Assembly: GCA_001724265.1 (NCBI GenBank)
Contig: MEDY01000225.1
Coordinates: 1-64,000 of the forward strand
Source of the DNA: Rhizaria sp. SCN 62-66
Taxonomy: Eukaryota
Reading direction: 5' to 3'
DNA: 64,000 nt
Shown here: positions 20,889-64,000 of the stretch, piece after piece
Numbering within the stretch: the first letter of the stretch is position 1
How the letters are laid out: each line of letters starts with the position of its first letter
Notes under the pieces: generated by a model
Told to the model about the DNA's origin: nothing
The model's input: only the letters and a program-made list of their open reading frames with translations
The model's database searches: none
Position numbers and translations under genes: made by a program

Positions 20889-20979
<91 letters not shown>

Positions 20980-25011: not shown

Positions 25012-28000
25012 TCAGATCAGCTCAAAGCCCTCGTCGCTGCCACTGCTAAGCATGGCGCGCACTCCCGGCGCCGCCCCGTCGCCATCCCCGGTCGGCGACC
25101 GGGACTGCGACAGCGCCAGCGACAGGTCAGGCACACTTCGCTCCTGACCTTGCTCAGGCTGTTGCGCCTGCGCCTGCTGCAAGTCTAGCTCGCGCGGCGG
25201 GCGCGAGTGCGACTGCGAGCGCACGTGCGCCTGCGTCGCCCCCTTGGCCTCGGCGTCGGCGCTGGTGCGAGCGGCGCCAGCGTCCGAGTCGGCGGCCGGC
25301 GGCTGCGACAGTGAGACTGACAGCGCGGGCGCTTGTCCGAGGCCCCTCTGTTGCTGCAGCGGCTGCTGCTGCGGAGCCCGCGACAGCGACTGCGCCTGCG
25401 AGAGCAGGGGCGACAGCGACTGCGAGAACGACAGCCCCGTCGCGTCGGACACGAGCTCGAACCCGAGACTGGGGCTTCCGCTCTGCTCAGCGGGAGCGGC
25501 AGCTGAACCGGCGCCAACGCCGGGCCTAGCACCGGCGGCTCGGGGGCTCATGCCAGAGCTGGAACCGGAGCTGATGCTAAAGCCAGAGCTCAGGCTAGCG
25601 CCAGTGCCAGAGCGAGAGTCGGAGCCAACGGGGAACGCAGGCACGGGACAAGGCGCCGCGGGACAAGGCGCCGCGTTGCCGGTGGCAGCCGCAGCGGCCG
25701 CCGCTTGCTGACGTCCCATCTGCACCTGCTTCTGTAACTGCGCCTTCGCCTGCGACTGCGCATGTGCGCCAAGCGACCGCGAGCCGAGCGGCTGGGAGGC
25801 GGGGCTTGATAGCGCGGCGTCGCTGCTCAGCGCAAAGACGTCGCTGCCGTTGGCCAGCGCGTCATCGCTGCCGCCGCTGGCCGCGGGGCCGTCGCTGCTC
25901 GCCGCAAGCACGCCGCTGAGCGTCGCGCTAATCACCGTGGCGCAGTCAGCGTCCCCGTCGGCGTCGCCGCCCTTATCGCTCTCCTTGTCGCCCGAGCCGG
26001 TGCGCCGCGCGGTCAGCGTCGGAACAGGCGCGGCCAGATCGGCGGCGCGGTCCCCTGCGCGGTCCGCGGGGGCGACGGGCGGCGTGACGCTGAGCGCGCC
26101 GTCGAACGGCGAGTCCAGGCCTGCCTCCACCGGCCCGAAGACGCCGGGGAACGCACCGGCGCCGTACGCACCGAGCGGGGGGCTGGCGTCGGACTCGGTC
26201 AGCGTGGCGCTCAGAGACACGGCGGCGGCGACGGCAGCGGAGGCTGCGCCGTCGGTCGTGGGGCTCAGGCCGGAGTCGGCGCGGTGCGAGTCGCTGAGCG
26301 AGGAGGCGAAGAGACTGGCGCCCACGCTCGTGGGTGACTGCGAGTGTCCGTGGGCGAGGCCGTGTCCGTGGCTCTGGCTGTGCACCGAGGGACTGGTCGC
26401 CGCCTGGCTGTGCGTCGACTGGCTGTGCGCTGAGTGACTATGCGCGAGAGGGTCGGAGGACAGGTCCGCCGTGCCCACGGTCGCAGCTGCGTTCATGTTC
26501 GCTATTGCAGCGGCAGGCGCCGTCACTGACGAACCCGCAGTCGCAGTCGCAGCGGGCTCCGTCGCTGCAGCAGATGCTGCAGCGGGTGCCGCAGCAGAAA
26601 CGAAGACAGGAGCGGTGATCGGCACGGGCGCGAGCGTCGCAGCACTGGTCGTTGCAGCAACATGCGCAGCGACAGCGACAGGGGGAGTGCCCGACGACGG
26701 CGAAGTGAGGCCGCGTTGTTGCGGCTGGGCCACACTTCCGCTGAAGTTGTAACCACCAGTGCCGTTGCTGATGCCGTTGCTGTTGTAGCCCGCGCCGAAG
26801 GGCGCCGCGTAGGCGCGCACGTCGCTGGCGTCGCTGAGCCCGCGGCGGCGTGTGGCCACCGGCGGCAGCGGGGGTGTCGCAGCCGCAGCGCCCAGCGCAG
26901 TCATCGCCGTGGCTGCGGCAGTGCTCGATGAGGCGAAGGACAGCGTCGTCGCTGCGGCGCCGGCAGCAGCGCCGCGCGAGCCCGATAGCGGCAGCGGTGG
27001 CGCGCCGCCGCGGGCGCCGCCGCCGCCGTGCTTGGAGGGCGAGCCGAGGGTGCCGGTGGCGGTGCCAGGCACACGCAGTGTGGGCAGCGGCGTTGACGGC
27101 GCGGGGATGCCGACGCTCGAGGGCACGCCGTCCAGCTCCAACTCCAGCTCGGCCTCGGAGGCGCTCCCGAGCACGCTCTCGGGCGCCACCGAGGCGGCGG
27201 CCGCGCGCAGGCCACCGGCGGGCGCAAAGGGAGCCTGCGAGAGGGCCGGCGACAGCGGCTGCACCGGGCCCGGCGACGGCGACGACGCGAGCGCCAGCGC
27301 CAGCGGCTCAGCGGCCAGCGCGGCAAGATGCGCCTGCGGCTGCTGACTCGACTTCAGCGCGGGCGCGGGCAGCAGCGGCGCCGGAGCGGCGGCGGGTCCG
27401 TGTCCGGGTCCCTGCGCGCTGGCAGGGCCGAACCAGTAGGGCGAGGGCTGGCCCGCGGCGTTGATGGGCGGCGAGTCGTCGGCGCTGTTGTCGTCGTCAA
27501 GTCCGCTGCCGTGACCGCGCCCGTGACCGTGGGCAGCGCGACTGCCGGGGCTGCGGATGTGCGCGGACGGGACTTGCGCGCGCGCGCGTTGCGGGCGCGG
27601 GACGCCTGCTGCGGCCGCGGCCGCAGCAGCCTTGGCGGCGCCCGCGCTCGGCCGGCCCGCGCCGCCCGCGAGCAGGTGCATCTGCGTCTGCGAGTGTGAG
27701 TGCGTCAGCGCCTGCGCGCCGCTGTGCGGCACGGGGTCCAGCGCGGGCGTGCCGCTGCCACCGCCGCGCCCGCCGCGCGCAAGGCTCAGCCCCACGCCCA
27801 GCCGCGCCGCGCCGCTGCCGCCGTGGTCGTGGCCGTGGCAGTGGGGCGCAAGCGGCGCGCCGTGGCCGGTGGTGACCGTGGGCGCCGCCGCGGGGGCCGC
27901 GAAGAGCAGCCCCGCGTCGTCGTCGTCGCCGTGGCTGTGCTCGTGGGCGTAGTCGCCGTCGCCGTGCTCGTCGCCGTGGTATCCGTAGTCGAGGCTGTCG

Positions 28001-31000
28001 TCAAGCGCATTCCCGTGCTCCGCCCCGCCGCGCTGACCGGCGTTGGCCGAAGACATCGTGGGCGCATGTCCGTGTGCGTGCGCGGCGCCGATGACGCTGC
28101 TCGCAACCGCGGCGCCGAGTCCGTGGCCGCCGGCGTGCGCGTAGTCGAAGTCCGAATGGCTGTCCAAGTCGCCCACGGCGCTGCGCCAGTCGAGCTCGAA
28201 CGCGCTGTCGGCGCCGCGCACGTGTGCCATGTCCTCTTCTTCTTCCTCCTCCGCGTCCGCACCGGCGCCAGTGCCGCGCGCGCGGCCGCTGGCGAGGCCG
28301 CCGGCATGGCCGCCGTGGACGACGCTGTGCGCGTGCGCTGCTGGGGGCGCGCGTCCAAAGCCGAAACCGTGGCCGTGCGCGGCGACGGGCACGATGATCG
28401 GGGCGGCGTTCGCCGGCACGACAATAGCGGCGACGCCGGTGTCCGCATTATTCGCGCTGCTGCTAGTAATGTTGTTGTTCGCGTTGTAGTAGTCGGCGAT
28501 GTCGCTGTGCGCGTACTGATACACCCCGTTGTACTGCTGCTGCAGCGGCACTGACTGCTGCTTAGGCAGCGACTGCTGCTGCGTCAGCGTGAGCGAGGCC
28601 GCCGACCGCAGCAAGTCCATCGCGGGCGGCGCCAGCGCGAGCGGCAGCGCGGACTCTGCTCTCGCGTCGGCGTCGGCGTCGGCGTCAGCGGCACCGTTGC
28701 TGGGGCCGAATAGGGGCGTCACGAACGGCAGGCTTGCAACATCGGCCTCGGCACTGTGCTGGCGCTGACGCTGTTCCTGGGCAATTGCAGTCGCAGCGGT
28801 GCGGCGCGGAGGCTGCGACTTCGCATGTGCCTGCACGAACGCGGGAGCAAGCGAGGACGACTCAGCGACGCTGAGGGCGAGGCCACCGGGCACAAATCGA
28901 GCAGGTGCATGGTGCGCAGCAGAAACAGCGTTGGCAGCTGCCGCGGAAGCAAGCACGGGGCCAGCCAGCGTCACGACTGGCGTCATCGCCGCGCCCACAA
29001 TCACTACATTCCCAGACACACTGGCGCTGCTACTGCTGCTGGTGTGGGTAGGCAGCGCGTCTGTGCTAGCCTCGGTCGCTGTCGCTAGAGGGGCAGGCTT
29101 GGCGACAGAAAGTGAGAGCTCGTTCACATGAGGACTGCCATCGTTGCTGCTGCTAACAGCTTTGCTGCCATCGTCCGCGTTTACGATAACAGAGCCCACG
29201 GCTGCGCCTTCCACCGCGATTAACTACACTTGATGACGCTACAACTGCTGCTGCTTCTGCTGTTGCTGTTGCGGCGGCTGTTGCTGCGGAGCGGGGCGCA
29301 CCGAGCCCGCGGACATGACTGAGAGCGCGAGTCCGCCGGGCGCACCGAAGGCACGCGGCTGGCGCTGCTGCTGCTGCTGCTGCTGTTTCGCCTGCGTCTG
29401 CGTCTTCGCCGCCGCACCCGACGCCGCAGCGAGCGCCGTGGGTGAGGCGGCTGTGACCGCAGCGGCGATCGCAGCCGCCACAGTCATGTCTTCGGAGGCG
29501 TCTGGCGAGGCGGGCCGCGACATGTCGACGCGCACGCCCACGGCGCACTCGAGCGCGTGGCCGCACGCGCACTCGCACTGCGCAGCGCTGCCCGCCGTGG
29601 TCGCGTGCGAAGCGGACGCAGCCGCGCAGCAGCAGCCGGGGACCGCCGCGAGCGGCGCGGCGGGAGCAGGGTCCACACCAGTCGCGGCCGCGACGACGGA
29701 GGCCGCGATGGGCGAAAAGGGCAGCGCAGCCGCCGCAGTCGCGTTTGCAGGCGCAGGCGCGGTCACGCCGGCGTTGGCGTTGTGCGCGGCGGCGAACGGG
29801 GCAGCGCTGCTGGCGCGAGCGAGCGAGGTCCCGACGCCAGAGTTGGCGCCGCAAGCGCCGACACCATTCTCAGCCGCCGCAGTGACCGCAGCAGCCGCGT
29901 CACAGTTAGTTGCGGCGCCATTGCCCGTACCGGCGACCGGCGCGCGCGACTGCTCTGCAGCGTTGTGCGCGGACACGGCGAGACCCGCGTGCGCAGCGGT
30001 GGCGGCGGACATGGTCAGCGACGTCGTGAGCGTAACGGTGCGCCGCGGGGCCGTCTTGAAGGCGCCCGCGCCGCCCGAGGCCACGATCGCGGCGGCCGCG
30101 GCGGGATCCACGCGAGGACCGCAGCCCGCAGCCGCCGCAGCGACGGGGGCGCCGCTGTCGCCCATGCTATCGCTGTCGCCGTCGCCGAGACTGTTGTTGT
30201 TGCTCCGGCCGGCGCCCGCGCCCTGTCCGTTGCCGTTGCCGTTGTCGTGGGTGAGGCCGTACAGGAAGCCGGGGCTGGGGGCCGCGGAGGGACCGAGGCT
30301 TGCGCGCGAGGTCCGGTGGCGGCGCACGCCTGAGGCCAAGCCAGCCCCGCTCCCGCTACCATTTGCGGGCTCGGCGCCAAAGCCAATGGCAGATCCAGCA
30401 GTGGCAGCGGCGGCAGCGGTCGGCGCGGGCGTCTGCGCCGTGGCAGGGGCGATGCCGAGGACCCGCCCGTGACCGTGGGCGCGGCCGTTGGCGTGGTTGA
30501 GGCCGTGGCCGGCGGAGACGATGGGCAGCACAACAGTGCTGCTGACGCCGCTGACGCCACTGTAGTGGCTCGCGGCGGGGCTGTAGTACGACCCGTCTTC
30601 CTGCTCGCCGTCGTGCTCACGGTCAGCCTCGCGACCGAGCTCTTGCTGGTCCTGCGCGGGCACATTCGCAGACGTAACATTCCCGGCGTTCTCGACACGG
30701 GCGTCGCCGGCGACACCAACTCTGAGCCCAAGGCCGAGTCCGGTGTCGTGAGCGTTGTATGCAATGTTGTTGTTGTTCGCCGTTGGCGGGAGCACGCAGA
30801 TCGTGGAGGCCGTCTCGCCCTCGCTGTCAGCCCACCGCGCCGCGCCCTCCAGTTCGGACGCCGTGATCGACTCGCAGTAGCCACGCGCGCGCACTGCACC
30901 CGCGTCCAGGTTGGACCCAACTTGGGCGCCGACGGTCGCGCTCGCGTCGGGCATAGCTGCGTTGCCGTTGCTGCTATCGTTGTCCGAGAAGATGCGCGCA

Positions 31001-33131
31001 ATGTTCGCGTAGGCGGCTTCATCATCGTCGTCGACATCGACGTCAAACGCAATTCGGCCACCATTGCCGTTTCTAACAGTTGCAGTATTCGGGCGACCGT
31101 TTCCGTTCGCGTTGGCCTGCCTCTTTGCACTAGTATTATTGCCGGCAGTGTGGGCAGTCGCGAGGTGCGCGAACGGGTTTTGCGCGTCACCATCGAGACT
31201 GCGCCGGGGCCCATGCACCCCGTGTCCGTGACCGTGGGCGTGGGCGTGACTGTGCGCACTGGCTGTACCGGCGATACCCGTGCCACCGTGGTCGCGGTCA
31301 ATGCGCTGCTCACGGTCACGTTCGTGGTAGCGGGCGCCATCGGCAGACTCGCCGTCGCCGTGCTGCTGCTGCTGCTGGGTGTCGTGGTAGTGCTACTCGT
31401 GCATGATGACGCTGTGCGCCTGGCTGTGGCCGAACTCGCTGCCGCTCTCGCCGACGCCGTCACAGTAGCCGTCGCTGTCGCCGCCGTGCCCGAAGTCGCC
31501 GTCGCCGTCGCCCGCAAGGAACTCGCTCGGCACGTCCGTCAGCGAGCAGCCGGGCCCGCCGTCGCCGAGGCCGAGGCCCAGTGCAGCGGCGCCGCCGTGG
31601 CCCGCGGCCGCTGGGTCGCGGCCTACGAGGACGAGACTCCCTCTCCCGCCGCCGCCGCCGTTGCTGTTGCTGCACGCGCTGGCGTTGACGCCCGTGCTGC
31701 GCTGCAACGACCGCAACTGCAACGTGTTGGCGTCTTCGCCACCGCCATAGCCCAGCAGCGCGTGGACGCTGCCGGCGCGGGGGACCGCGCCCCCACCGCC
31801 GCTGCCGCCGCTGCCGCTGCTCACGGTCGTCGTGGCCGCGGCGGCTGCGGAGGCCGCCGGGGGCACCTGCGGTCCAAGGCCCGCGTACTGGCTGGGGCTG
31901 CCCGTGTAGGTGGCCGCGCCGACGCCGGCCGAGGCGGGCCGCGCCGGGTACGCTGCAGACTGCGACTGCGGGCTCAGCGACTGCGGCCCCTGCGGGTGAG
32001 TCTGTTGCTGACTCTGCAGCTGCTGCAGCTGGCGCTGGCGCTGGTAGCTCTGCGCGGCGCGGCGCGCGTCGGCGTAGTAGTCGTCGCTGCTGCTCCCGCT
32101 GCCGTCGGCGTCGTTGCCGTCGGCGTTGCCGCTGTTATTGAGGCTGCCATTGCCGGCGGCCGCGGCGTGCTGCCGCGCCTGGCCGTAAGAGGCCAGCGCC
32201 GAGAGCCGGTTGGACATCTTCTGCAGCAGGTCCTGAATGTGCGCGTCATACCCGCTCTCCACCGCCGCGGCGTCGCTGTTGCTGTTGTTGCCGTTGCCGT
32301 TCGCTTGCGCGCTGTCGTCGGCGTCGCTGTAGGCGTTCGCGAGGGGGTTCACGGTCGTGCTGCTGGCGCGGGCGCGGGCGCGCGTGTTGCGCGAAGCCCG
32401 GCCGGCACCGCTGTTGGTGCTGTTGGCCCCGTTCAGACTGCCCGTGCAGTCGTTGGCGCTCGCGGTCGGCGGGAGGCCGAGCAAAGAAGACGAAGGAGCG
32501 AACGCGCCAGTTGTCGCAGCCGCCGCGCCAGCGGCAGCAGCTGGGCCCGTGCCGCCCAGCTGAAGACTCAGACCAAGCGTGGCGGCCTTGCGGCGGTCCG
32601 CCTCGTTGTCCTCGCAGTCGTCCTCGTCCTCGTCGTCGCCGCCGCGGCCGTGCAGGTAGTGGCTCTCGCTGTGAGTTTGGCTGCCGGCGCCGCCGTGGCC
32701 GTGGCCGGAGCCGTGGAGGCCGTGGCGCGGCGCAGCGCGCTCGTCCTCGTCCAGTGACAAGCCGCCATCGTCGTCGGTAAGCAGTGCTGTGCTCGGGCAG
32801 AGGGTCGAAACGGGCGGAGACCGTTGACAGTGCGGGTGATGAGAGAAGGGTCAAGGCAGGCAGTAAAGGAGAAGAATGCGAGTTGTAAAGGCAAATTAGG
32901 GGATAGGAGAGCATCGACAGACAAATAGATACAATATGTACGCGTGCTCACGGTACTGCTATTGCGATTCCATGAACGATATTTGTGTTGATATCTCGCA
33001 TCAAATGTGCTTGTGTGCGTAGACGTACGGTCGATTGAATCGTCCTCATCGGTGCGCGCGACTCCGCGACGGCGATGAGCCAGCGGACAGCACCAACGTG
33101 CGCACCAGCAACGCGCAAGCCAACCGCTCAT
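25012..33131 (-). CDS. Very large (about 2650 aa) low-complexity protein with three in-frame TAG codons (exons 33131-32942, 32786-25012)
   Basis: ORFs 32760-31393, 31218-29239 and 29214-25012 share one frame and are separated only by TAG (31393-5, 29239-41, 29224-6). A phase-1 GTACAT..CAG intron adds a Cys-rich N-terminal exon. Stop is TGA. Confidence 0.72.
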
Positions 33132-33915: not shown

Positions 33916-36377
33916 ATGTCAGGTACGTTTTCGTTTCCAAGCATTTGCAAAACTTTGGTCGCTTTCAAACTTCCCTCTCCCTTACCATGATGACTACTTG
34001 CGCTTTGATCCTCCACAGCCCCCGCGGTCCCCATTCGCGTGAACGTGTCGAGTAGCGCGGCCGCACCCGCAGTGCCCCATCGCTCCGTGAACTCGCCTAC
34101 CTCCAAAGAGGCTCCCACTCCCTCATCTTCGACAGCAGCTGCTGCGTCTGCGTCGGGCCCTGCAAACGATGACACGGCACCCTCGACCCACGCGCCCGCG
34201 ACGAGTTCTACTGCGGAGCCTGTGAACACTGTGGCCGCAGGCACCGTGTCGCCGACGACGCCCGCGACGCTGCAGCTGCGCCCGCGCGGCGCGCTCAACG
34301 GCCAGATCTTCGACCTGTACACGCAGTCGCAGTTCGACGACTGCCTGCGCCTCATCGACCGCGCGCTCGCGCTCCCCACGCCGCCCAACTCGCTCTCCAC
34401 CGGCGCCGGCGCTGCGTCCGCAGCGACCGCGGCCGTGGCCGCGGGGGTGACGGCGACCGCGAGTTCGCCCGACGTGAGCGCCATGACGAGCGGCGTGCTC
34501 TCATCGCCCTTCACCGCGCCGGCCGCGGTCGACTCGGATTACCCGCTCTTCGTGCGCGGGCTAATCTTGCGCCAGCGCGGACAAGTTGCGCGCGCGCTGG
34601 AGGCGTTCCAGGCGGCGCTGCGGCTGAACCCGCGCTCGGCCGACAACGCCAAGCACGTTGCGCGCTGTCTATACTTGTTGGGCCACGTACCGCGCGCGCT
34701 TGAGGTCTACGACAAGGTCGTTGCCATGCTTGGTGGCGCGGCAGGCGCGGCCGCGGGCGACGCTGACGTGCTGCTCGGCGTCGGCGAGTGCTACATGCGC
34801 CAGGGCCGCTTTGCCGAGGCCGCCAAGGTGCTGCGCGACTCGATCGCGTAGCGGCCCAGCGACGCCGCCTACCTCGCGCTATGCCAGGCGCTCACGCTCG
34901 GCGGCGACACACCCGGCGCGCTCCAGGCGCACACCGACGCGCTCGACTTCAGCCCCGAAAACGCAGAGGTACGTTCGCAGCAGTTTGAAATATGTTCAAT
35001 TTACCCATCATCCATTCTCACAATCTCTCATTATCACACACTCACACATCTCTTTCTTGTCTTTGCATTGCTTTTTTCTCATCACACAGCTGCTGACCCG
35101 GCTGGGCGCTCTGTACCTGCGCGCGGGCGCGCCGCGTCAGGCGTTTGACCTGCTGGGCACGGCGCTGACGCATGTGCCCGAGCACGCAGAGGCGAACTTC
35201 GCCGCCGCAGCAATCACGCTCCAGCACAAGGAGTTCGACGCTGCGCTGCTCAAGTACCGGTACGCTTTGTGAATTGTCCACCTGATTATTTGTGTAGGAT
35301 GCGTAAAAGTCATCGGAAAAACACAAAACTATTTTGTTCTTGTACTTATGTCTCATTGTCATTCTGTCGTTCTATTGTTGTCCTGCGCATTCTTACAGTG
35401 TCGTTGCGCACGCTGACCCTGACAGCGCCGAGTTGTGGACGGATATTGGTCTGTGTCTCTGGGGCAAGGGCCGCGCTTCTGCCGCGGCGGCGTGCCTCAA
35501 CCGCGCGCTTTTCATCTGCCCCACGCTGTGGTCCGCGGCCTACAACCGCGCGCTGGTGGCGCTGACGGCCGCGCAGTACGCCACGGCGTGTCACCACCTC
35601 ACGGCCGCAGTCGCGCTCAATCCCACGCACGCGCCCTCGTTCGCCGCGCTCGGCGTCGCGCTTGGCCGCATGGGCGATGTGACGAACGCGTCGGCGGCGT
35701 ACGACCGCTCTCTGCGTCTGGCGCCGCACTCGGCGCCAGTGTACCTCAACTACGCCGCGATGCTGCTTAACGCCGCGGCCGCGGACCCGGAGACCGCGCG
35801 CAGCGCCGGCGGCGCGCTAACACCCCAGGAGACCAAAGCCGCGGCGTTGTGGGACCGCTACCGCTCGCTGTTCGCCACGGCGACGGCGGCCGCGGACGCC
35901 GCCTCTGCATCTGCCTCAGCCGCCGCGGTGCGTGGGTCCGGCGCTGCGGCTGCGCCCACGGGGTCGCCCGCCGCGCTGGCGGCCGCGGCGCTGGCGCCCT
36001 ATTCGCGCGCCGAGATTGAGCTCACCGCACAGCAGGTCGCGACTGCGCTGCAGCACGCGCGCGGGCGTGCCGCCGCCGACGCTGCGGTCGCCGCGGCCGC
36101 CGCGGGCGCCATGGCCGCCAACAGCAGCTCGCCCGGCGCGCCCGTAGGGCCGCACAGCATGATGCCCGCGCCGCCACAGACGCGCGCTACGCCCGCTGCG
36201 CCGCCGCGCCCTGTCAAGATCAGCAGCGGCGGCAGCGGCAGCGGCGGCGGCAGGCACTCGAACGCCCTTGAAGACAGCTTCGAGGCTGACAATAACAAAG
36301 CCGGTGGAGGGCTGCCACCGCCGGTGCTGCGGCCGCCGCCCAGGACTAAGCCCGAGGAAGACGATGCTGCAGTTTGA
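33916..36377 (+). CDS. BBS4: BBSome subunit BBS4 with an in-frame TAG at 34849-34851 (exons 33916-33922, 34019-34968, 35090-35259, 35399-36377)
   Basis: YPLFVRGLILRQRG, ALRLNPRSADNAKHVARCLYLLG, ALDFSPENAE|LLTRLGALYL, AFDLLGTALTH, FDAALLKYR|VVA and SAELWTDIGLCLWGK match the BBS4 TPR series as I recall it. Stop is TGA. Confidence 0.9.
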
Positions 36378-36718: not shown

Positions 36719-39700
36719 TCAATCATATGTTTCAGCAGCACCGTAGCCACCTCGAAACCCCGCTGAGAGCGCGGCCGCAGAGGCCGCAGCCGCAGCCGCG
36801 GCAGCCGCAGCCGCCGCAGAGGAGGACGGCGACGCTAACAGGGCCTGGCGCTCCGAAGCGCGGCCTGCGTACTCAGCCGCGCCGGCGCCCAGCGAGCCCG
36901 CGTGATAAATGTCGCCGCCGTCGTCATCGTCGTCGTCACCGCTCACGCTCTGGCTGCTGCCGCGCGTGACGACCAGCGGCGTCGCGCCGGGCCCGCGCGC
37001 GGTGAGCGAGAACGCGCCTCCCGCGGCCGCCGCAGCGTCGGCGTCGCCTGCCCAGCCGCCGCCGGCGCCCCAGGTGTCGCTGTTGCCGCTGCTGCCGCCG
37101 CTGCTGCTGCCGCCGCTGCTGCTGCCGCCGCTATTGTTGTTGTCGCCGCTGGTGGTCGGCGCCGCGGTCGAGCCGCCGTTAAGGCTGCTGCAGTCGCCGG
37201 CCTGGTAGAACGCACCGCTGTCGCTACCATTGTAGCTGTCAGCGGCAGCGTCGTCGCCGCAGTTGCTCTCCGTGCAGGAGCCGCTGGCGGCGGCGCGGGG
37301 GCGGCGCACGAGGCGCGAGAGCAGCAGCGTGGCGGGCGAGCGCACCGAGTGGCCCGCCGCGCCCAGCGCCACGCAGCCGCGCGCGATGATCGCCGCGCCG
37401 CTGTGCGCGCCGACCGGCGAGGACCCGGGGCAGTTGTCGGCGTCGGCGTCGCAGCAGTCGGCGCGAGAAGGCGAGCCGGGGCTGCGCGGCGAAGCGATGG
37501 GGCAGCACGGCGCGGTCTCGCAGCACTCAGCATCACCGCCGCTCCCAACGACTTGGCCCCTGCTCGTGGCGCCCGCGGCGGTACCGAGGTGGTCGCCGTG
37601 GTTGTTGGCGCTGTAGACGCAGATGCCCGCGACGGCGATGGCCCACGCGGCGGCCACGCCGGCGCCCGCCAGCAGCGTCAGCACCCAGTAGTAATCGAGC
37701 GCCTCCTTGAGTGCGTCGGCCTCGGCCGCGGACAGCGCGACGCCGCGCGCGGTAGTGTTAAACGAAACGGACGGCGCGCGCGTGCGGGAGGCGCCGCGCC
37801 GCGCCTTGCCGCCGCGGCCCGCCTTGGCGTCGGTCTCAGCGCCAGACTCTACAGCGGCATCTGCAGTAGCAGTGATGGCGCTGTCCGTATCGACCTTGTT
37901 CTTTGACTCGGTGTCGGTGGCAGCACCAGCGACTACGACGGCGTCGACGTCGTTCTCAGTCGCGACAACAAACGCAGCATTGGCGGCGTCAGCGGAGGCG
38001 CGCGCGGCGGCCTTGGCCTTCGTCGCGAGAGCCTGCTTGCTGGCGCGCACAGCGGCGAGCGCGGCGGCCGCGGCGGCGTCAGCGGCGGCCTGCGCCTCCC
38101 TGGCCTTCGCCGCCAGCGCGCCAAGCTCCGCAGCCTCGTCAGCAGGGCTGCCAGCGGCGGCACCGGCGCTGGTGCTGGGGGGCAGGTGCAGGTGCGTCGC
38201 GAGGTCGGCGCGCGCGGCCGCGGCCAGCGCAGCGCGGCGGGCCTCGGACGCCGCGGCCGCGGAGGCGCGCGCCGCCCTGGCCACTGCGGCGTCCAGCGGC
38301 GAGTCCTTGCTCTCACTTTTGCTGTCATGCTCGCCGTCACTGCCGGCGTCCGCGCCGTCTAAGGGGTACTTAGCGTGGTCGAGCGGGGAGAGCAGGTCGA
38401 GCGCGCGCTGGTGCTCGGCGCGGGCGAGCCAGTCGGGCGAGATAGCCCAGGGCAGCAGGTTCACGTCGTGCACCATGGCGCCCAGTGCGAACGTCACGTC
38501 GGTCCCTGACAGAGAGCGCACAAACGTCACCGTGGGGCCGCTCTGCGCCTGCGCGCCAGGCTGCGCAGCGTCCGCGCTCGCAGTGCTACTGCTGCTGTTG
38601 TTGTTGTTCGAGGCAGGCGCGTTGCCCTTGTTCGCGGTACTGGCGCCAGCGCGCGGCTCGAGAGGGATGCCGATGCCGTCGTGGAGCAGCGCGACAGTGT
38701 AGGCGGCGAGCCAGCAGTAGGAGCGCAGGTAGTACTTGTTGGCCGTGGGGTAGCGCCGCAGCAGCTCGGCCCAAGGTACGGCGCAGAAGTCGCGGCCCGC
38801 GCGCGCGAGGTCCGCCAGCGAGGCGTCGGCGGGCAGCCCGATGAAGTCGGGGAAGTAGGAGAAGCCCGAGAAGGCGTAGAAGGAGCGCACCTCGGCCAGC
38901 GGCGGCCGGTACAGCCCGAAGAAGGACGTGCACTGGCCGGGGAACGGCGACGACAGCGACTTGGTCTCCGAGTGACACGGGCCGGTCAGGCTGTGCAGCG
39001 ATATGCGAATGTGGGACAAGAATAGAGGAGAGAACCGATGTGTGAGTGACATGTGGAATTGTGCGAGATAAATTAGAGATAAGCCTGGACATTTTTCGAG
39101 CATTATTGTTACGCTACAAGGCAAGTTGCTCGTAATCTGCGTTACTGTGTCGCCGTACCGTGTGTTGACAAGCTCCGTGGCGAGCGCGTAGCAGCGGTCA
39201 AAGTCCGCCTTGCCCTCGACCACGACCTCGAGCTCCTCGCTGTCGTCGTAGTCGGAGTCGTCGCCGCCGCCGCTAGCGTTGGCAGCAGCGCTGCCACCCG
39301 CGGCGTCGCTCGTTGCGGCCCTCGCCGTCTTCGCCCGGCCGCCGCTCTCGTCGCGCACCGGCCGGATGGGACTCGCGCCCGCAGCGTCAGCGTCGCTGTC
39401 GTCGTCGCCGACGTCGACGCCGCGCGCGCTCTGGCCCGGGCGCCCCGCGCCGCCCTCCTTGACGGTCACGGGCACCCCGCCACCAGCACCACTCCCACCA
39501 CCACCACCAGCAGCCGCAGCAACGCCATGGCTGCGGGGGCGGCGGCGCAGCGGGTGCGTGGCGGCCAGACCCATGGGCCCGGGGCCCAGGCGCGGCAGCA
39601 CGCCCGGCGCGTACACGGCCTCGTACCCCGTCGGCAGGCACGGCGACTGGAACACTGGGTCCAGCTCGGCCTCCGCCCCGTCACTATGGGCCCCTGCGTC

Positions 39701-42600: not shown

Positions 42601-43053
42601 ACCTAAGATAGTAATCTGCCCAATTCCTGACTTCACTTGTGTAGTTTAAAGAACAGAGGCGCTGTGACGAGTAACATTGACGGCGATGGAGGCGGATGAG
42701 GGTCGAACCAGGTCAGGTCGTTACAGACACACGTAGATCGCCGAGATAGCATGGTATAGCTTAGTTAAATTAACATTATATTTGCACGCCTAAATCACAT
42801 ATCATACGTCCAATGTGATATCATTGATACATCAAGAATGATCGGAATTATGTTGCAACAAATCCGACATTGACTGGCGACTGGTGAGGAAAAAACAAAC
42901 TGTATTCGGTGCTGTTATGATGCGCAAATTAGTCAAACATGTTAAGTTTTGACTCGGGAGATAATCACTGACCGCGTTGATTCAATAATATGTAGAGTGG
43001 CAAACTAGTTAATCGATGATTATGTTCGTATTTTGGGTCCTGCTACTGAGATA

Positions 43054-48636: not shown

Positions 48637-48959
48637 GAGGCGCACGCAAGGCTGGTTGTTACTTGCCTGGGGTGAGATCGACAAACGAGTGCAGGAGAGC
48701 GGGAACGCAAATTCATAGGGTATTATTAGAATATAATCTGCAAATCCACGGTTTAGAAACAATATTCAAAGTATGTATCTCGCAACGGATTTTACACCGA
48801 GACTCATTCAATCAAAGAACAAACACCAAGACCCGACGAATCTGGACCTCCTTCAACGAATACATATTTCCTCGGATTACAGTGGCCCTATTCATGCAGT
48901 AACCAGTCAAACAAGCTCAACATATAAATATAACAACCACACCTTTCTTAGTGAAGCTA

Positions 48960-50081: not shown

Positions 50082-51641
50082 TCAGTTGCCGCCTTTCTTG
50101 GCTGCGCTGAGGAACTTGTCGTACGCCTCGCAGGAAGGCATCTTCTCCGCGTAGGCCGCGCGCATGCGCTCCGAGGCACCTGTGTCCTTGGCGGCGCGCG
50201 CCTCCTCCATCTTGCCGCGCTTGGCCTTGCGCTGCGCCGCGCACTCGTCCTGCAGGCGCGCCGAGAACTGCTCGTTGACGGCCTCCTCGAACTTGCCCAG
50301 CGCGCGCGGGTCGCGGCCGTAAGTCCACTTGAACTCGTTGTTGACGAAGTAGGGCGCACCCTGCGCTGTTTCACGCGCGTGCGGGAAGGCGTGCGCGCGC
50401 TGCAGCGAGAATGGGTACTGCGGCGCCGTCGACGTGCTGGCCGAGTTGAGCATCGTGAAGAGGAACAGGAGCACGAGCGGCAGGAAATGCACCATCTGCA
50501 GCAGCGACGTGCCCGCGCCCTCGCCACCGCCGCCGCCGCGCTGCTGCTGCTGCTGCTGGTAGCCCGCGGCCGAGGGCCCACGCCGGTAGCCCTGTTGCTG
50601 CTGCTGTTGCTGCTGGGCGCGGCGGCGGGGCCCCGCGGCGTCGGCGCCCGCGAAGACGGAGCCGAAGATGTTGCGGAAGAGCATGTCCGGGGTCATTTCC
50701 TCGAAGCCGCCGTGCATGCCGCCGCCGCCGAAGCCCTGGTGGAAGCCGAAGCCGCCGCCGGGCCCGTAGCGCGCGCCCTGTGCGGCGCGGCGCTGATGCT
50801 GCTGCTGTGCGTAAGCGTTCTCATCGTCGACGCCTGTCATGTCGTACATGCGCCGCTTGGCGGGATCGGAGAGCGTGAGGTAGGCGGCCGTCACGGCCTT
50901 GAAGGCCTCCTCGGCCTCGGGCGCCTTGTTCTTGTCGGGGTGGATGCGCAGCGCGAGCTTGCGGTACGCCGACTTGATCACAACGTCGTCAGCCGTCTTG
51001 GCCACGCCTAGGATCTCATACTTGCACTTGATCTTGGTGATGCGCCGCGCCGCCGTCTGCTGCTCCACCGTGTACTCGTTGTCGCCGCTGCCGCCGCCGG
51101 TCGCGTTGCTATTCGAGCTGCTCGCGCCGCTGCTCGCGCTGTTGCTGTTGCTGTTGGAGTTGGCGGCCGGGGGCGGGCGCGGGGACGAGGCATTGGACGC
51201 GGGCGGCGGGCGCGGGGCCTGCTGCTGCTGCTGTTGCTGCTGCTGCTGTTGATACTGTTGGTACGAGGAGGACGAAGCCTGGGGCTGGGGGCGCGGCGGG
51301 GGCGAGTTAGGCTGCGGCGCGGGGCCCTGGGGGCGCGGCGGCGGCGCCTGCTGCTGGTACTGCTGCTGGGGGCGCGGCGGCGGCGGGGCCTGTTGCTGCT
51401 GTTGTGGCTGCGGCTGAGGTTGCGGACGCGGCGGGGGCGGCGACGCGGCGGCGGGGCGCGCGCTGCCGCCGCGCTGGATGCGCGCCTCGACACGCTGTAG
51501 CATGTCGGTGGCGCGTGTGGTGTCGAAGAGCGAGAGCGATTTCTCGAGCAGGATGCGCGCGTCCTCAAGGCGGCCCTGCTCCACGCAGGCCTCGGCGCGC
51601 GCGATCAGCGCCTGCGACGTGGCGCGGGCCTCGTCGGACAT
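50082..51641 (-). CDS. DNAJB12/DNAJB14-like ER membrane J-domain co-chaperone
   Basis: N-terminal TPR-like helices, J domain ([33 protein letters not shown]), G/F-rich region, one TM segment, and a DUF1977-like C-terminus with two Cys. Stop is TGA. Confidence 0.9.
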
Positions 51642-55067: not shown

Positions 55068-55104
<37 letters not shown>

Positions 55105-55319
55105 TGCCGCAGTCGGCACTGACGGCGCCGGCGGAGAGGGCGCCGGCCAGGATGGAGGCTGGGGTTGGGATTACCGCAACAACGAAAGCGGCGATGGTTT
55201 CGGCCACGGTCACGGTGGCGGTTCAAGTGATCGCGGTCACGGTGACGTTGACGTGTACGATGCTAACAAAGGCGGTGCACACTACGACGACGACGACGAC
55301 GACGACGACAATGGTGTTC

Positions 55320-55382
<63 letters not shown>

Positions 55383-56158: not shown

Positions 56159-56529
56159 GATGTGCTGTTTATCCCAATATGGTTCTCCTCATTCCTAATG
56201 TTTCAAACGCACTAAATTCGAGCTGTAAACTGGCCATAATACAATGAGTTAATTTATCATCTTTGAACGCAAGTATGATGTTAAATCACCACCGGTTTTC
56301 AGTTCATGCATTTTTGAGCGCGTCTGTTTGAGATCTATTGCTTTTTGGTTCTGACCACTTAAAAACTGACAAGGTTCAAAAGCTATGTGTTCTTCGAACC
56401 TTTTCGATTTTATCATTGATAATTAGTTAAAGTACACATTTAAATTTGATATATCAGTTTTATCATCGGTCACCATTATTGCGTGCTTTATAAATGCAGT
56501 CGTCCTAATCGCTTCAAGTTGGGCCAGCC

Positions 56530-58878
56530 ATGATGTCGGTCTCTGCCTCAGACCCATCAAAGAGCGCCATAAAAGAACATATAACAAACAGCGCCCAAAC
56601 CTCAGAAAGCACATCATCCACCCATACCTTAATGGTGAACCAGACCACTCCTAGCCCCATGGTTGTTTGTATGGGATCGATCCTTCTCGACGACAACGTC
56701 GTCTCCACGACATATGAGCCGCTGACGCTGTCCCTGAGTGAGTCCAGCCGCCGCGCGTCCGCCGAGTCACGAGCCAACGCAGAATCCGCCGGCGCGACAT
56801 TTGCCGGCGCGGTCTCCGCGCGCGGGGGCTCCGCGCCGGGCCCGCCGCGTAACGTGCGCTACGCGCTCTTCCCGGCGCTGCTGCGGCTGTATCTAGTGCG
56901 CTCGGAGAGCGGCCGGCGCGTGCGCAACGTCTACGATATGGTCGCCGAAGACTTCGCGCGCTTTATCCCGGCCGCGACCGGTGCCCCCGGGCTAGAGCGC
57001 GTGTGTGGCGTGAGCGCGCGCGAGCTGCAGCGGTACGGCGCGTGGCTGCGGACCGCGCGCGGCGTCGGGCTGGTGCTGCGCTAGTGCATGGCCTTCGTGG
57101 GCGACCTCTGGTACCGTCACCACGACTGGGACACGCTGCGCCCGCGCGCCGGCATGGGTCTCGACCCCGACGCGGGCGACGCGGGCGGCGCGCCGCTGCC
57201 GCCGGAAACGTGGCGCCAGATCGCAGAGAAGTACGTTGCTTCACGTTGATTGCCGATGAAAACAGCTTTGAGTCCCGTGTCTTCCTAGAATCGCCAATGC
57301 GTATCAGTACATGATACATCTCACATAATTTAGATATGATAACAAACTTAAAAACTAGAATCTTCATCACACTGCCATCTTTCTTACTTCAGTTATGCGC
57401 CGTACAACAAGAGTTCGTGCAGCAACTTCAAGCACATGGCCGACGGCTCGTGCTGGCACGACCAAATTGGACTCAACTACCGCGCCGCGTTCGCTCTTCT
57501 GCGCGAGTTTAATGCGGCACCAGGGAACCACGCGGCGGTTGCTGCGCACCGCAACGTGCCCATGGTGTTCCCTATCTCAGCCGACGCGCGCGTCAATGGC
57601 GACAATAGCCGCAACCGCGGCAACGGCAGCTACTCCGGGTCTCCGGCGGAGAACGGTAGGCGCGGCGCCGCGGCTGCTTTGCCCAGCGCCGTCGCGCACA
57701 CTGGCGCGGACGCGGGTCAGCTCCTTCGCACTGCTGCCGCGGCGGTCACCCCCAGCGCCACACCAGCAAGCGCTGCAGGAACAAGCGCAGCTGGCCCACG
57801 CTCACCGCTGCACACAATGCTACTAAGCCTCGCCGCACAGGCGAGTCCCCCTGCTGCGGGCGTGATAGTAAAGGTCGGGTCCGTTGCCACTCAGGCTTCT
57901 GCAACCTGTGCCGAAGCGGACACAAGCCCTGCCGGGAGCCGTCCTCCCGGGAGCCGTCTTCCCGGCGCCGCCGCCCAAATCAGCCCCGCGGACCGCAGCA
58001 ACCCGGCCGCGTTTCACTAGCCATTGACGTTCTCCCCGACGGCGCCCGCCTTCGCGGCCGAGTCCACCTCCGCCTCCGCCACCGCCCCGTCACCCGAGAT
58101 GCAGGTTGCGACCGCGCCACGCAAAGCTATTGCCGAGTCACATGACGCGATTGCAACTGCGTCGCACGAGGCGCTGGTGACCGCGCCGCGCGACGGGGGC
58201 GGGTCGCTGGCACGGCAGCAGATCGCGGACGCCGTCGCGGAGTCCTTTCTGCGCAGCGAACGTCTGGCCGCCGTCCTGCCGGGGCTGCTCCAGGAGGGGC
58301 TTACGCAGGTCCGGCGCTCGCAACCGCGCGGCGCGACGCCCGCCGAGACCGATGCGGCGCTGACGCGCGCGCGGGCCGCGATCTCTGTCATGGTACAGAC
58401 CGAGGTCGCCGCCGAGACCGCGTGGTTTTGCGCAGAGGCGCGCGTCAGGGCCGCGCAGGCGCACTCGCGCGCGCTCGGGCCCGTGCGCGCGGCCGACGCG
58501 GCGCGGCTGCAATGCGCGAGTGCGGCGATGGCGAAGCTCGTGGCGACCGCGAAGCACGCGGCAGCCACGGCGCCGAAGCGCGGGGCCTCGGGGGCCGAGG
58601 TGGGCCGGTGGGCCGAGGTAAGCCGGCGGGCCGAGTCTCAGCAGCCGGCGGCCGCGCCGCAAAGCGCGGTCCTGATGCCGGTCAGCGCGGCAGGCAGGGC
58701 CGCGCTGGCGGGCGTGCACGCGTTCTGGCGGCAGCAGAGCGTCTTCGCGCGCGAGTACGCACTGGGGCACTGGCCGCGCGTCCGGCGCACGAGACTCAGC
58801 TGCAGCGACCCGCCGGCGCGCGAACATCCGCCGGCTAGCTAGGCGCTGAAGTCGTGGTCTGTGTCGGTCTTCAGCTCG

Positions 58879-58912
<34 letters not shown>

Positions 58913-59028
58913 GGCGAGGGACGTTGCGAGTCTTCAAACCGTAGGAGACATTGAGCTCCGGTAAAGGCACAAGCAGCGCGGTGGTACATATGTGCGACAA
59001 TGATAGGAGCCAACTGGGTGACGCTTAA
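56530..59028 (+). CDS. Hypothetical protein (about 780 aa) with four in-frame TAG codons (exons 56530-57230, 57393-59028)
   Basis: TAG at 57082-4, 58018-20, 58840-2 and 58942-4. A phase-2 GTACGT..CAG intron links the frame downstream of the first TAG to ORF 57436. The first TAA/TGA in frame is TAA 59026-8. Confidence 0.7.
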
Positions 59029-60033
59029 ACACGATCGAAAATTCAAGTTTGACGGGGCAGAACGCTCGGGTCTGCTGTGACTGTAGTGTGACAAGTTGCG
59101 ACAATGAACGAGATATGCAAAGAAATTAAGTCGCAATAGCACTAATCAAATCAGATACATCAACTATAACTCCTTTTGGGAAGCATCTGAAAATTCAAAG
59201 CCACATGCATCATGAAGTCATACAACAGAAGAATATGTCTTTCTTAGAGCTTGCAGTTACCAGGTTACATTTGTGGTGGCAACCGGAGCCAAGATGTGCC
59301 TGCCACATGCCTTCCGCAAAATCGATAATGTTCGAAGAGAGTATCGTCAAACATTATGCTGGTGCAGCTAACGTTTAGTATGATTGCGCATGTATTCATT
59401 TTTATAATAATACCCTCTTAAAGCTGATTTGGCGTGCTGTCTCAACCTCCCAGCTGGTGACCTTCTCGAAGCGCTGTCCGACATGCTCTTATTGTGGAGC
59501 GGAGTCGATGCACGGCTCCGAAACTCAACGTTATACTTGTGCAATTTGTTGTCCGATGTGAAGACCTCCTGTTCTTTACATGGATTGTTTTCCTCATCTT
59601 AGATCACTTCTATGGAGGGGGTACTCCGTTAGACGTGCACACGTTTGTCATGTAGATAACCCAACGACAGCCTATCTCATCGAACAAGCTCAAGAGAAAA
59701 GCATGAGCATATGTCATATTCTATAGCATGCTTGCTTGGCGTGTGCTTTAGCTCTGTCCGAAGCAGCTTTAGTTTGCGTTGAATGTCTCTTCTTTAGTAT
59801 CATTGACCCCGTTATGATTACATCATCGATTGGCAGGCAATTGTGCTCGAAAATTCAATGTGCTGTTCTAGACTCACTCAATGTTCCTTGTGAATATGTA
59901 TATGTTTTCTATGTATAGAACACATCTAATCCATCCCAACGAACGGGATTTGGAACCCTTCCGATCTTCTTTAGTGCCCAGACTCGTCTGGTTTCGTCAT
60001 TTTTACCTACTGGGCAGCAAGCCCTGTGATGCA

Positions 60034-63000
60034 ATGAACCTTACCCCCGCAACGTCATCGCACTCAGCCAGCATTGCGGCCCTCGCAGCGGCCGCCGCGG
60101 CTGCCGCAGCCGCTGCCACGGCCCCCGTCGACATCCCCCAGCTGATCGCCCCGCGCCCTCTCGCCCAGCCCGCTGCCCAGGTAGACCAGTCAGTCCCGTC
60201 CTTGGCCAAGGCCCCAGGCGCAGTGCCGCGTCGCAAGCGCGCCGCGGACTCAGCGTTCTCTGTTGGCGCGGCCCCGCGCGGCGCGGCCGCCAAGGGCAGG
60301 CGCGGCGCCGGCGCTGGCTTAGGTCCCGGCGCTGGCTTAGGTCCCGGCGCTGGCGGTGCTGGCGCTGGCTTAGGCGATGCTGGCGCAGCGGCCAGGGCGC
60401 CGCGCGCGCAGTCGCAGGCCGCAGCGCCGCGCACGAAGCGGGTTGCCGCGTCGACGCGGGTGAAGCGCGAGGCCTCAAGAAGCGGCGACTCCACTCGCGG
60501 CCGTGCCGGACCCGTCGCCGTCACTGGAGCCGGCTCCTAGCACAACGCGATCGAGCTGAGCAGTGATGACAGCGACGACGATAACGGTAACGATGGCGGC
60601 GACAAGAAGAAGGCGCCAGCGAGGAGGGCGGTGCGCAAAACTGGCATAAGCGGCCGCAAGAACTCGCTCCGCGCGGGCGCCGCCGGTGCCGCCAACGACG
60701 GCGACGAGGACGACTTAAGTGGCGACAGCGGTCAGAGCGGGAGCGGCGGCAACGGGAGCGAGAGCGACTCCGATGGGAGCGGCAAGCAGCCGCGCGCGAA
60801 GCGGCCCCGCGCGGCCCCGGGCGCTGGGAGGCCGCCGGCGTCGCCCTCCGCGGCACGGATGGTGACCGTGGCACGCTACCAGCCGCCGCCGCGGCCGGCG
60901 TCGGCGCCGGGTGCGCTGCCGCCGTGCCCCTGGGCGCCGCGCTCGCTGATCGTGCCCGCCTCTACGCCCAGCCCGGTGCCGACTGCGCACAGCAACAACA
61001 ACAACAATAACAACAATGTCGGCCGTGTCGCCGGCGCGAGGAACGCCCGTGCGGGCGCGCCCGCCGGCGCCGTCATTCTCGCCGCCGCCGCAGCCGAGGC
61101 AGCAACGCGCGCGACAGAGGCGGAACACTTCGTCGCGGCCGCGGCCGCCGCGGACGCCGCCGCGCAAAGCGACGAGGTGACGCACGACGACGTGCCGTTC
61201 GTCGAGGCGCGGCTGCCCGCGGCGCGCGTGACGACCGTGACGTACGCTCGCCCGATGCCGCTGCCGACGCTGGCGTCGGCGCGCGCGGCGCTGCGCGAGG
61301 CCCGCGCGGGGCTGGGCCGCATGGTGACCGTTCACCGCTTTACGCCCTCGCCGCCGCACACGCAGCCGCCCTCGGCGGGCGCCGACGCGACAGTCTTCGC
61401 CGCCGTGTCCGGCTACGGGTGGATGAGCACCCGCATCACGCCTGTGCCGACCGACGGCGTGCCGCTCAACTCCGTCACGGGCACCGAGTACAATTCGGGC
61501 AGGAAGCCCGTGCCGGTCGCGGCGAAGCTACGCGCGCTGGCCGCCACGGAGCGCGAGGCCGACGCGGCCCAGCCCTCGGAGGCCGAGATCGCGGCGGCCA
61601 TTGTCAGCACTGTGACCGAGACGGCGCCCTCGGTCGAGGCGTGCGGCGGACAGCGGCTTGTGTTCGTGCGGCCCTCGCACACGCACATGTTTCCCGGCCC
61701 TGCCTTCGCCCGCGTCCCGATTCCGGAGGCCGTTGCCAAGCGCCGGGAAGGCATTGCAAAGAAGATGTTGATCAGTCAGAAAGATGACCCAACAACGACA
61801 GTTGCCATTTCTGGTGATACTATCGTTGCTGCCACTACTATTGCTACTGACGCCGCGGCCGCCGCTTCCTCCGGCGACCGCGCCGCACCGAAGCCCCGCC
61901 GAAAGTCCGCCGCCTCGTCGAATGCGGCCGTGGCCGTCTCTGCTGCGCCGGCGTCCGACGGCGCAACCCCCGCGTCGCCGGCGTCGCCCTCGGCCGCTTC
62001 GTCCTCGGCCGCGTCGCCGGCGGTCGCGTCGCCGGCAGTCGCGTCGCTGGCGGTCGCGCGCCCGCGCCGCGTCCTGGGGCCCGGCGGCGAGGACCTGGCC
62101 AAGGCGCTGCGCAAGGCCGTGAAGCGCGCCGAGGACGCGCGCCTGGCCGTGGGGCCCGCGCAGACCGTGGCGCAGTCCGCGGCCAGCGACGTGGCCGAGG
62201 CCGAGGAGGGCGGCGGCTCGGCGAGCTAGGTCGCCGGCCTGCGCAAGGCGTTCGAGGTCGCCCAGTCGTGGCTCGTGGCCAAGCGGCAGGCCGTGCTCGC
62301 CGCCGAGACCGACGTCGCCGCCAAGACCGCCGCGCTGGACGCGGCTCGGGGCGCGAGAGCGGGGACCATGGCGTTGATGCTGGCAGAGGACGGTACGCGT
62401 GATGCGGACGCGAGCGATATTCACGAAGCTTATCACGATGTCATCCCAATGAACGACTCAGACGGCGCATCTGCTTCTAGTGTAGCGCCCGCAGCTGCCA
62501 TTTCTGCTGCCGCCGCTGCTGCCGCTGCCGCTGCAGCCGCAGCTGCTACAACTGCGACACCAGATGTCGGGCGTAAGCAGAAACTCGCAATGAACAAGGC
62601 ACCTACACCCGCGCCCAGCTCAGCTACTGAGTCACGCATAGTCCCCGCATTGGGTCATGCGTCCACGGTGAAGCCGGTGAAGGCGGCGGCCCTTCCCGTG
62701 GCTGCGCCGCAAAATTCCGCGGGTGCGCCTGACCTGCAGACGCGCGCACTGCGCGAATGGCTGGCCGTCGCGCGCGCGCAAGGCTGTGACGTGCACAGCT
62801 CATGCGCGCGCACGGTGCTCTGCAGCGACTTTATCGCGGCCCGCCTCGGCGCGCTGCTGGACCAGTTTCAGCCCTACGTCACTTTCGCCTAGTACGACGA
62901 CCTGTGTGCCGCGCTGCGCCGCATGCCGCTGCACGCGCTGCAGGCCGCCGCGCGCTCGCTGGCGCTGCACGCGCGCGCGCGCGACCTGAGCACCTTCCTC

Positions 63001-64000
63001 GCTGTTGCCTTTGGCGTGCCAGTGGGCGTGACTTCGCTCCAGCGCCTGCCCGAGGCCGTCAGACATCAGGTGTGGGCGCTCGCCGCGCTTTTTGATCTCG
63101 AGCGCAACATCAACGCGGCCGCCAACAGCGCAGCCGCTTCTGCGGGGGCGCCGATGGCGCCGCTCGCCCCCGCACTGCTGCTGGCACCAGTTCCCTTGGC
63201 GACAAGCGCTGCTGAGCCTGGCCAGCCCAAGTCTGTGAAGAGGCCGCGGAAGAAGCGCGTTTCGCTCGACGGCCCCACGGCGCAGCCCATTGACCTCGCT
63301 TCGCCAGTGCTGGCCGCGCTCGCGGACCGCTTGGTCGGCGAGGCCGCGCCCCCACCGCTGGAGCCGTTCAAGCCGATCGCGGTGCCCAGCGCGGCGGGGT
63401 TTAAGTCCCGCGCTGCGTCGCTGGCGCGCGATGCGCACGTAAAGCTGGAGCACTCTGCTGACCAGAGCGTTTTCACCCGACCGCTGCCGATGTCTCGCCT
63501 CACCCCGATGCGCGTCCACGCGGTGACCCCTCTCCGCACAGACGCGGCCGCAGCGCTCCCGGTGGCGCCTGCTGGCGTGATACCGTCCTCTACGGCGGCG
63601 TCCTCTGCAGCGTCCTCCACTGCGGCGCTGTCCGCGCTATCGCGGCCGCAGACGCCATCGGCTCTGGCACTGGCCGCGCAGGCGCAGCGCGTAGCCGAGA
63701 TGGCGCAGGCCGTGGCGCAGCTGCAGCGGCAGAACCAGCAGCAGCAGCTCCAGCTCAAGGCCCGCGCGCAGGCGGTCTCGCAGGCCCAGTCGCAGGCGCA
63801 CTCGCGGGCGCAGTCGCGGATGGGGACGCCACTGCGCCACCACAGCCCCGCCAGCGTCTCCGCCAGCGTGCCGCCCTCCGCGGCCGCGAGTGCCGCTGCG
63901 GTCGCGAGCGCTGCCGCGAATGCCGCTGCGCACGTCGCAGCGCCGACGCCGACGCAGTCTAGCTCAGAGGCGCCACCGCAACGGCAGCCGCAGCCGCAGC
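60034..64000 (+). CDS. Large Ala/Pro-rich hypothetical protein with three in-frame TAG codons, running off the window end
   Basis: ORFs 59881-60540, 60631-62229, 62275-62892 and the open frame to 64000 share one frame, separated only by TAG (60538-40, 62227-9, 62890-2). Basic NLS-like motifs PRRKR and KRPRKKR. The start is uncertain. Confidence 0.7.

Follow-up and report, generated by a model that had tools for sequence, protein, structure and literature searches.

Probable use of UAG as a rare sense codon in the nuclear genes of a GC-rich eukaryotic contig

Nuclear genetic codes that split UAG from UAA are represented by about half a dozen lineages, and they bear on the question of why both codons usually change together, as they do in the codes that reassign UAA and UAG jointly, which are the common type. 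The stretch analysed here (hereafter, the window) consists of 64,000 nucleotides of contig MEDY01000225.1, deposited as Rhizaria sp. SCN 62-66, and contains five genes interrupted by 13 in-frame TAG codons. With a probability of about 0.82, these are read as sense codons, used rarely in nuclear genes (about 1/1000 codons), in a code where translation is terminated by UGA, the main stop, and by UAA.

The closest described system is that of the rhizarian exLh (Sainouroidea), in which UAG encodes leucine and both UAA and UGA remain stops; its description (Panek et al. 2017, PMC5304391) gives 384 UAG codons in 71 transcripts, of which 56 end in UAA and 15 in UGA, together with a predicted tRNA-Leu(CUA) derived from tRNA-Leu(CAA). 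Leucine is also the meaning of UAG in three metagenome-assembled genomes (MAGs) of phyllopharyngean ciliates from TARA Oceans, which carry tRNA-Sup(CUA) genes, and where UAG makes up 6.5-10% of the Leu codons and is found in 81-91% of the genes, with UAA as the fixed, preferred stop (McGowan et al. 2024, PMC11687900). In other cases UAG is read as glutamine, with UAA as a stop, as in Iotanema spirale (PMC5304391) and in Protocruzia tuzeti, Hartmannula sinica and Trochilia petrani (PMC11687900), or as serine, again with UAA as a stop, as in the green alga Scotinosphaera (PMC11687900, citing Li et al. 2021). In those UAG-only codes for which figures are at hand (PMC5304391, PMC11687900), UAG occurs often and most genes end in UAA. 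An earlier note on this DNA had listed I. spirale, the rhizarian and some phyllopharyngeans, correctly but incompletely, given that Scotinosphaera, Protocruzia, Hartmannula and Trochilia were missing. A full-text literature search, whose coverage leaves out most subscription journals, did not turn up any GC-rich or wastewater eukaryote for which a code of this kind is described.

In-frame TAG codons and the coding signal around them

All 13 in-frame TAGs that the earlier note had located in five genes were recovered at the positions it gave, in GC-rich, exon-like sequence (GC of 0.53-0.78 in the 93 bases around each TAG). The five genes are the following.

25012..32850, minus strand: giant low-complexity open reading frame (ORF) of 2612 codons with a TGA end; TAGs at 31393-31395, 29239-29241 and 29224-29226
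33916..36377, plus strand: BBS4-like gene with tetratricopeptide repeats (TPR), exons 33916-33922, 34019-34968, 35090-35259 and 35399-36377 (TGA); TAG at 34849-34851
43054..48765, minus strand: giant ORF of 1903 codons with a TGA end; TAGs at 47164-47166 and 46306-46308
56530..59028, plus strand: two-exon gene (56530-57230 and 57393-59028) with a TAA end; TAGs at 57082-57084, 58018-58020, 58840-58842 and 58942-58944
60034..63999, plus strand: ORF leaving the window; TAGs at 60538-60540, 62227-62229 and 62890-62892

The fourth of these genes unites the ORFs 56509-57249 and 57352-59028 through a donor GTACGT at 57231 and a TTCAG acceptor that ends at 57392. Given that the phase is kept over the intron 57231-57392 (AA|T, with two bases before it and one after), TAG 57082 is internal to the gene.

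In this DNA the length of an open frame is weak evidence by itself, and the argument relies on other tests. ORFs that reach 300 codons or more number 34 under the standard code, 48 when TAG is taken as sense and 99 when TGA is, and the gain in ORF length was dropped as evidence for sense TAG, since TGA as sense gains more. In the first giant gene, the in-phase antisense frame is open for 808 codons (30334-32757, plus strand). Other long, stop-free shadow ORFs lie on the plus strand across 25012-32850, antisense to genes rich in G and C at the third codon position (GC3), and are callable by length alone.

The sequence that follows the two kinds of triplet differs markedly. After the gene ends at TGA or TAA, only 1-33 codons stay open and their GC3 is 0.25-0.67, whereas past the TAGs 33-717 codons remain open, with a GC3 of 0.60-0.85. 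The exception is the pair at 29239 and 29224, whose members are only 4 codons apart; past the second TAG of this pair (29224), 1403 codons run on.

Trained only on the homology-supported genes of the window, a six-frame codon model gives in-frame sense as the best reading in 15 of the 16 stretches that flank or separate the TAGs, the sixteenth being a tie. This includes all three stretches of the first giant ORF (GC of 0.72, 0.62 and 0.82 at the first, second and third codon positions) and all four of the ORF that leaves the window. The same model correctly labels the 808-codon antisense ORF as in-phase antisense and marks the other shadow ORFs as antisense too, and three controls from untranslated regions (UTRs) score far lower and favour no frame clearly.

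The 12,843 coding codons of the models include 13 TAGs and no flagged TAA or TGA; the earlier note had likewise seen no in-frame TAA or TGA in its modelled exons. The segments were picked as ORFs free of TAA and TGA, which makes this zero circular by itself; it gains weight because of the post-stop test and the six-frame model. The off frames of the same ORFs hold 155 + 208 TGA, 32 + 49 TAA and 34 + 59 TAG.

On the other hand, the TAGs might result from nonsense mutation of genes in decay or from errors in the consensus, or might be spliced or edited out of the mRNA, an explanation to which we give very little credence, less than to any other considered here. It would suit the orphan character of four of the five genes, which are of low complexity and for which no homologues were found, and the first giant ORF, where the few listed strain differences carry no sign of purifying selection. 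Defects of these kinds would be hard to reconcile with the makeup of the five genes, in which about 8,400 codons contain no TGA, no TAA and no frameshift, every one of the 13 interruptions being a TAG. As for splicing, which the earlier note had named as a possible refutation, the four introns read (33923-34018, 34969-35089, 35260-35398 and 57231-57392) are 96-162 bases long, with GC near 0.4, a 5' GTACG and a 3' ACAG or TCAG; exons in the window have 65-75% GC, and introns and intergenic DNA about 35-45%. None of the 13 TAGs falls inside a span with this local look, that is, GTRHG..YAG over 60-400 bases with a GC of at most 0.50.

Retention of a TAG in a second strain also speaks against the defects. 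An unspliced DNA contig from run X4, covering 34736-35488, differs from the window at 4 of 753 bases, none of them in TAG 34849; three of the four fall in exons of the BBS4-like gene and are all synonymous, two of them downstream of the TAG. Likewise, ORF 43054-48765 has 10 listed strain differences downstream of its two TAGs, and 6 of these are synonymous. Contigs from run X3 show no difference over 45320-49199 and 29891-35435, though X3 is possibly the source sample. The read evidence consists of contigs; the majority of the 6,500 pieces are cross-matches of low complexity, and the joints listed are spurious. Run X6, from a polyA library, has contigs on both giant genes; among the contigs listed, no RNA contig lies over 34849, 31393, 29224 or 29239. 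In the BBS4-like gene, X6 covers 34962 and 35242 and has zero depth at 34973, within intron 2, a gap that hints at the splicing of this intron.

Terminators and the proposed residue at UAG

Fifteen gene ends were modelled in the window, of which 13 are TGA, 2 are TAA and none is TAG, in a small sample where 58942 is ambiguous. The count of 19 ends in the earlier note (14 TGA and 5 TAA) has to be replaced by these figures, and its observation that TAG never closes a gene is retained. Two further TAAs, at 41422 and 54155, are intronic, the first in the GDA1 gene and the second in gene 52904-56158. Three genes of known family bear on the ends or serve as controls.

1386..2222, minus strand: PACRG gene (Pfam ParcG, 5e-80), ending with TAA at 1386-1388 after a conserved C-terminus
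36719..42645, minus strand: GDA1/CD39 nucleoside phosphatase gene of at least 3 exons, with a TGA end at 36719 and without in-frame TAG; used as control and for training
50082..51641, minus strand: DnaJ + DUF1977 gene with a TGA end and without in-frame TAG after the start codon; used as control

The ambiguity at 58942 raises the possibility of a context-dependent code, such as those of Condylostoma and the karyorelicts, or that of UAA in Blastocrithidia, in which UAG would be sense within genes and a terminator near some 3' ends. TAGs 58840 and 58942 precede the TAA at 59026 by 62 and 28 codons, and the coding signal weakens in this part of the gene: GC3 near 58942 lies between the coding and UTR values, as does the per-codon score of -4.38 (-3.5 to -4.1 in coding sequence, -4.85 to -5.1 in UTRs). 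The rarity of TAG (13 of 12,843 codons) would also fit a dual meaning. However, no modelled end is a TAG, the remaining TAGs are separated from any 3' end by hundreds of codons, and even the 28-codon tail past 58942 is still best in frame, so that a dual UAG appears unlikely. TAGs 58840 and especially 58942 are ambiguous, and 10-11 of the 13 sites are robust.

A second alternative concerns UAA, which might have been reassigned together with UAG and be too rare in a GC-rich genome to show in frame, or might have a dual role. From the ratios of CAA to CAG (93:462) and of TTA to TTG (16:60), a TAA with the same meaning as TAG should have appeared in frame about 3 times, and finding none in 12,843 codons is thus only weakly surprising. 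The two TAA ends tell against this. Homologues of PACRG end in ...YESKVIRH or ...YESKVIRQ at exactly the place of the PACRG TAA, which is followed by 33 codons with a GC3 of 0.42 and which, as judged from this alignment, is the best-anchored UAA terminator; the TAA of gene 56530-59028 is followed by AT-rich DNA. Joint reassignment is accordingly regarded as quite improbable, somewhat more so than a dual UAG, and the reading of UAG alone as sense is retained.

The identity of the residue is approached through TAG 34849, the sole TAG at a conserved, alignable site, which occupies position 30 of a TPR repeat encoded by exon 2 of the BBS4-like gene. The gene matches Pfam TPR families, and among solved structures its matches to bovine and human BBS4 (E = 1.4e-20 and 4.4e-20) are ahead of that to OGT (1e-15). 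For the alignment, 11 BBS4-sized representatives (291-621 aa, near-full cover of the query, 31-40% identity) were chosen from the 150 best matches, the 139 others, mostly long multi-TPR proteins, being excluded. Opposite the TAG they have I, I, M, I, L, F, K, V, I, V and I, and L stands there both in bovine BBS4 and in TPR proteins designed to a consensus. With bovine BBS4 included, the column holds five I, two V, two L and one each of M, F and K; it is hydrophobic in 11 of 12 orthologues, and Gln, Glu or Ser occur in none. Position 30 in the other TPR repeats of the gene was read by eye as L, M, F, H, I, L and L.

This one alignable site moderately favours leucine, which is judged somewhat better than an even bet. 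In that case TAG would account for 13 of 909 Leu codons, about 1.4%, close to TTA with 16. Glutamine, against which this single column speaks, is considered unlikely, and another aliphatic residue slightly more so, with what probability remains spread over other residues. Given that the conserved column is mostly Ile and Val (7 of 12), a further reading can be formulated, which we hold to be doubtful: a non-Leu aliphatic meaning of independent origin, in a GC-rich, flagellated, non-ciliate lineage whose main terminator is UGA. Such a residue is not known to have been assigned to UAG in any nuclear code, the lineage would be one without a known code variant, and the case would depart from the AT-rich genomes and UAA preference of the UAG-only codes reported so far. 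The surroundings of the TAGs add little. Gln ranks only 17th of 20 in a neighbour-context likelihood over the 13 sites, in a test that is biased by polyQ tracts; Ser adjoins 5 of the 13 TAGs, as compared with about 0.2 expected by chance from its frequency, which is not significant; and no internal paralogue covers any TAG.

Mechanistically, a tRNA whose anticodon is CUA would pair with UAG, though not with UAA, and would insert the residue, and the recognition of UAG by the release factor eRF1 would have been lost or weakened. The simplest source of such a tRNA would be tRNA-Leu(CAA), which could be turned into a CUA form by a single anticodon change; the leucyl-tRNA synthetase (LeuRS) does not read the anticodon, as discussed in PMC5304391. 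That a CUA-anticodon tRNA reads UAG and leaves UAA unread is argued in both PMC5304391 and PMC11687900, the latter of which reports such tRNA genes. In the window, UAG is found mostly in long, fast-evolving, low-complexity genes and in none of the well-conserved ones, and its absence from the conserved genes would be expected of a poorly used, recently captured codon. The combination of a rare UAG, UGA as main stop and a GC-rich genome may represent an early, seldom seen phase of codon capture, which, if so, would allow testing whether a tRNA(CUA) precedes or follows the change in eRF1.

The proposal of the earlier note, a reassignment of UAG alone, is supported by frame continuity, the codon model, the BBS4 site, retention of the TAG in a second strain and the lack of TAG among the 15 ends. 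Several observations must be set against it. The evidence comprises just 13 sites within one 64-kb window, with one of them at a conserved, alignable position, and TAG 58942, and less so 58840, is possibly a true terminator. The case for UAA as a stop only is thin, resting on two ends and about three expected in-frame TAAs. Four of the five TAG-bearing genes are the low-complexity orphans already mentioned; Pfam shows no domain around the 12 TAGs other than 34849, a metagenome scan with ORF 60031-63999 found no close relatives, and a search with the domain 62650-63249 gave no match. In ORF 25012-32850, 2 synonymous strain differences stand beside 7 non-synonymous ones, with no synonymous excess, part of these differences probably coming from cross-mapped low-complexity contigs. 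The X6 contig 46169-46533 spans TAG 46306 with 4 differences at unlisted places, and is therefore no demonstration of a TAG in RNA. No tRNA gene was found within the 64 kb by ARAGORN or Rfam. Finally, the neighbour-context likelihood is led by P, R, T, Y and L, all near zero, and singles out no residue.

Gene content of the window and its host

The window is eukaryotic and GC-rich (0.53-0.72 per 4 kb), and its gene families comprise PACRG, a PP2C phosphatase, alpha-SNAP, the GDA1/CD39 phosphatase, the DnaJ/DUF1977 protein, an ARL6-like GTPase and the BBS4-like TPR protein. Two genes are to be added to those listed above.

14011-14625, minus strand: ARL6/BBS3-like GTPase, whose best matches in the Protein Data Bank are ARL6 chains
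15559-17868, plus strand: TPR protein with a weak match to the TPR of nephrocystin-3

Together with PACRG and BBS4, these two form a cluster of cilium genes within 35 kb. Because the window carries these several cilium genes, the organism is taken to build a flagellum or cilium with a BBSome. It is judged not to be a ciliate, given its GC-rich exons and its GTACG introns of middle size. As to its lineage, the Atlas gave for PACRG only clusters dominated by animals, and the ranking of PACRG against the Protein Data Bank is uninformative.

Other parts of the window deserve mention in their own right. The ORF 18509-21262 (minus strand) has 917 codons in a low-complexity, eukaryote-style sequence with a long poly-Asn tract, and its residues 527-569 match Peptidase_M23 (E = 1e-07), a domain known mostly from bacteria, so that an acquired gene may be present here. 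Between 7000 and 12400 the GC is lower, about 0.53, and the coding-like ORFs are all short, apparently belonging to genes with many short exons; one of them, 8213-8653 (minus strand), resembles the N-terminus of the ribosomal protein L31e, though Pfam gave no match to it. Pure trinucleotide tracts occur within genes at 20888-20978, 55312-55384 and 58881-58915, as (GTT/AAC)n encoding poly-Asn and (CAG)n encoding poly-Gln, and such tracts draw cross-mapping contigs of other organisms.

DNA of the window is present in bioreactor and wastewater metagenome runs. One metagenome locus (L001, a JGI contig of 2043 bases) is 100% identical to 603-2645 and belongs to the same organism. A scan of genome contigs with PACRG gave no match, and the corresponding metagenome scan yielded 80 loci. 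The nearest long contig among them (L002:10001-10795, in 67 kb with 52% GC) has a PACRG that is 70% identical as protein and, over 574 bases, 79% identical as DNA. In 16.5 kb of L002, taking TAG as sense gains almost nothing (9 versus 10 ORFs of at least 200 codons), and no in-frame use of TAG was seen. Since L002 gains almost nothing and no other close relatives were found, the relatives are uninformative as to how widely the code is shared; it may be that only a narrow lineage has both the high GC and the altered code.

The proposed reassignment has a practical side. Gene calling under the standard code shortens the genes of this organism, as in the public call of the BBS4-like gene, which terminates at the TAG and comprises 206 aa; in a word-based search with exon 2 of this gene, the sole match was the window's own shortened gene call. 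For this reason, eukaryote bins obtained from wastewater metagenomes may carry wrong annotations.

Comparison with the known UAG-only codes

The rhizarian exLh resembles the present organism in being a non-ciliate eukaryote in which UAG alone is read, here probably, as sense; leucine is the inferred meaning there and the favoured one here. It differs in that UAG is common there and UAA is the main stop, whereas the GC-rich window has 13 UAGs and UGA at 13 of its 15 ends. The habitats differ too, exLh living in an insect and the window organism being found in bioreactor and wastewater metagenomes.

Like the window, the TARA Oceans phyllopharyngeans are known from metagenomes, reassign UAG only and keep UAA as a stop, with leucine assigned there from conserved sites. 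In contrast to the window, they are ciliates; here the introns begin with GTACG, the exons have 65-75% GC, and UAG would make up about 1.4% of the Leu codons.

The codes in which UAG means glutamine share with the window the decoupling of UAG from UAA, and differ at the conserved site, where Gln or Glu occur in 0 of 12 orthologues. Similarly, Scotinosphaera is a non-ciliate with a UAG-only code, but Ser, its residue for UAG, is found in 0 of 12 at that site. The seryl-tRNA synthetase (SerRS), like LeuRS, ignores the anticodon. The organism would be a further case of a rare, already known type of code change, the reassignment of UAG alone.

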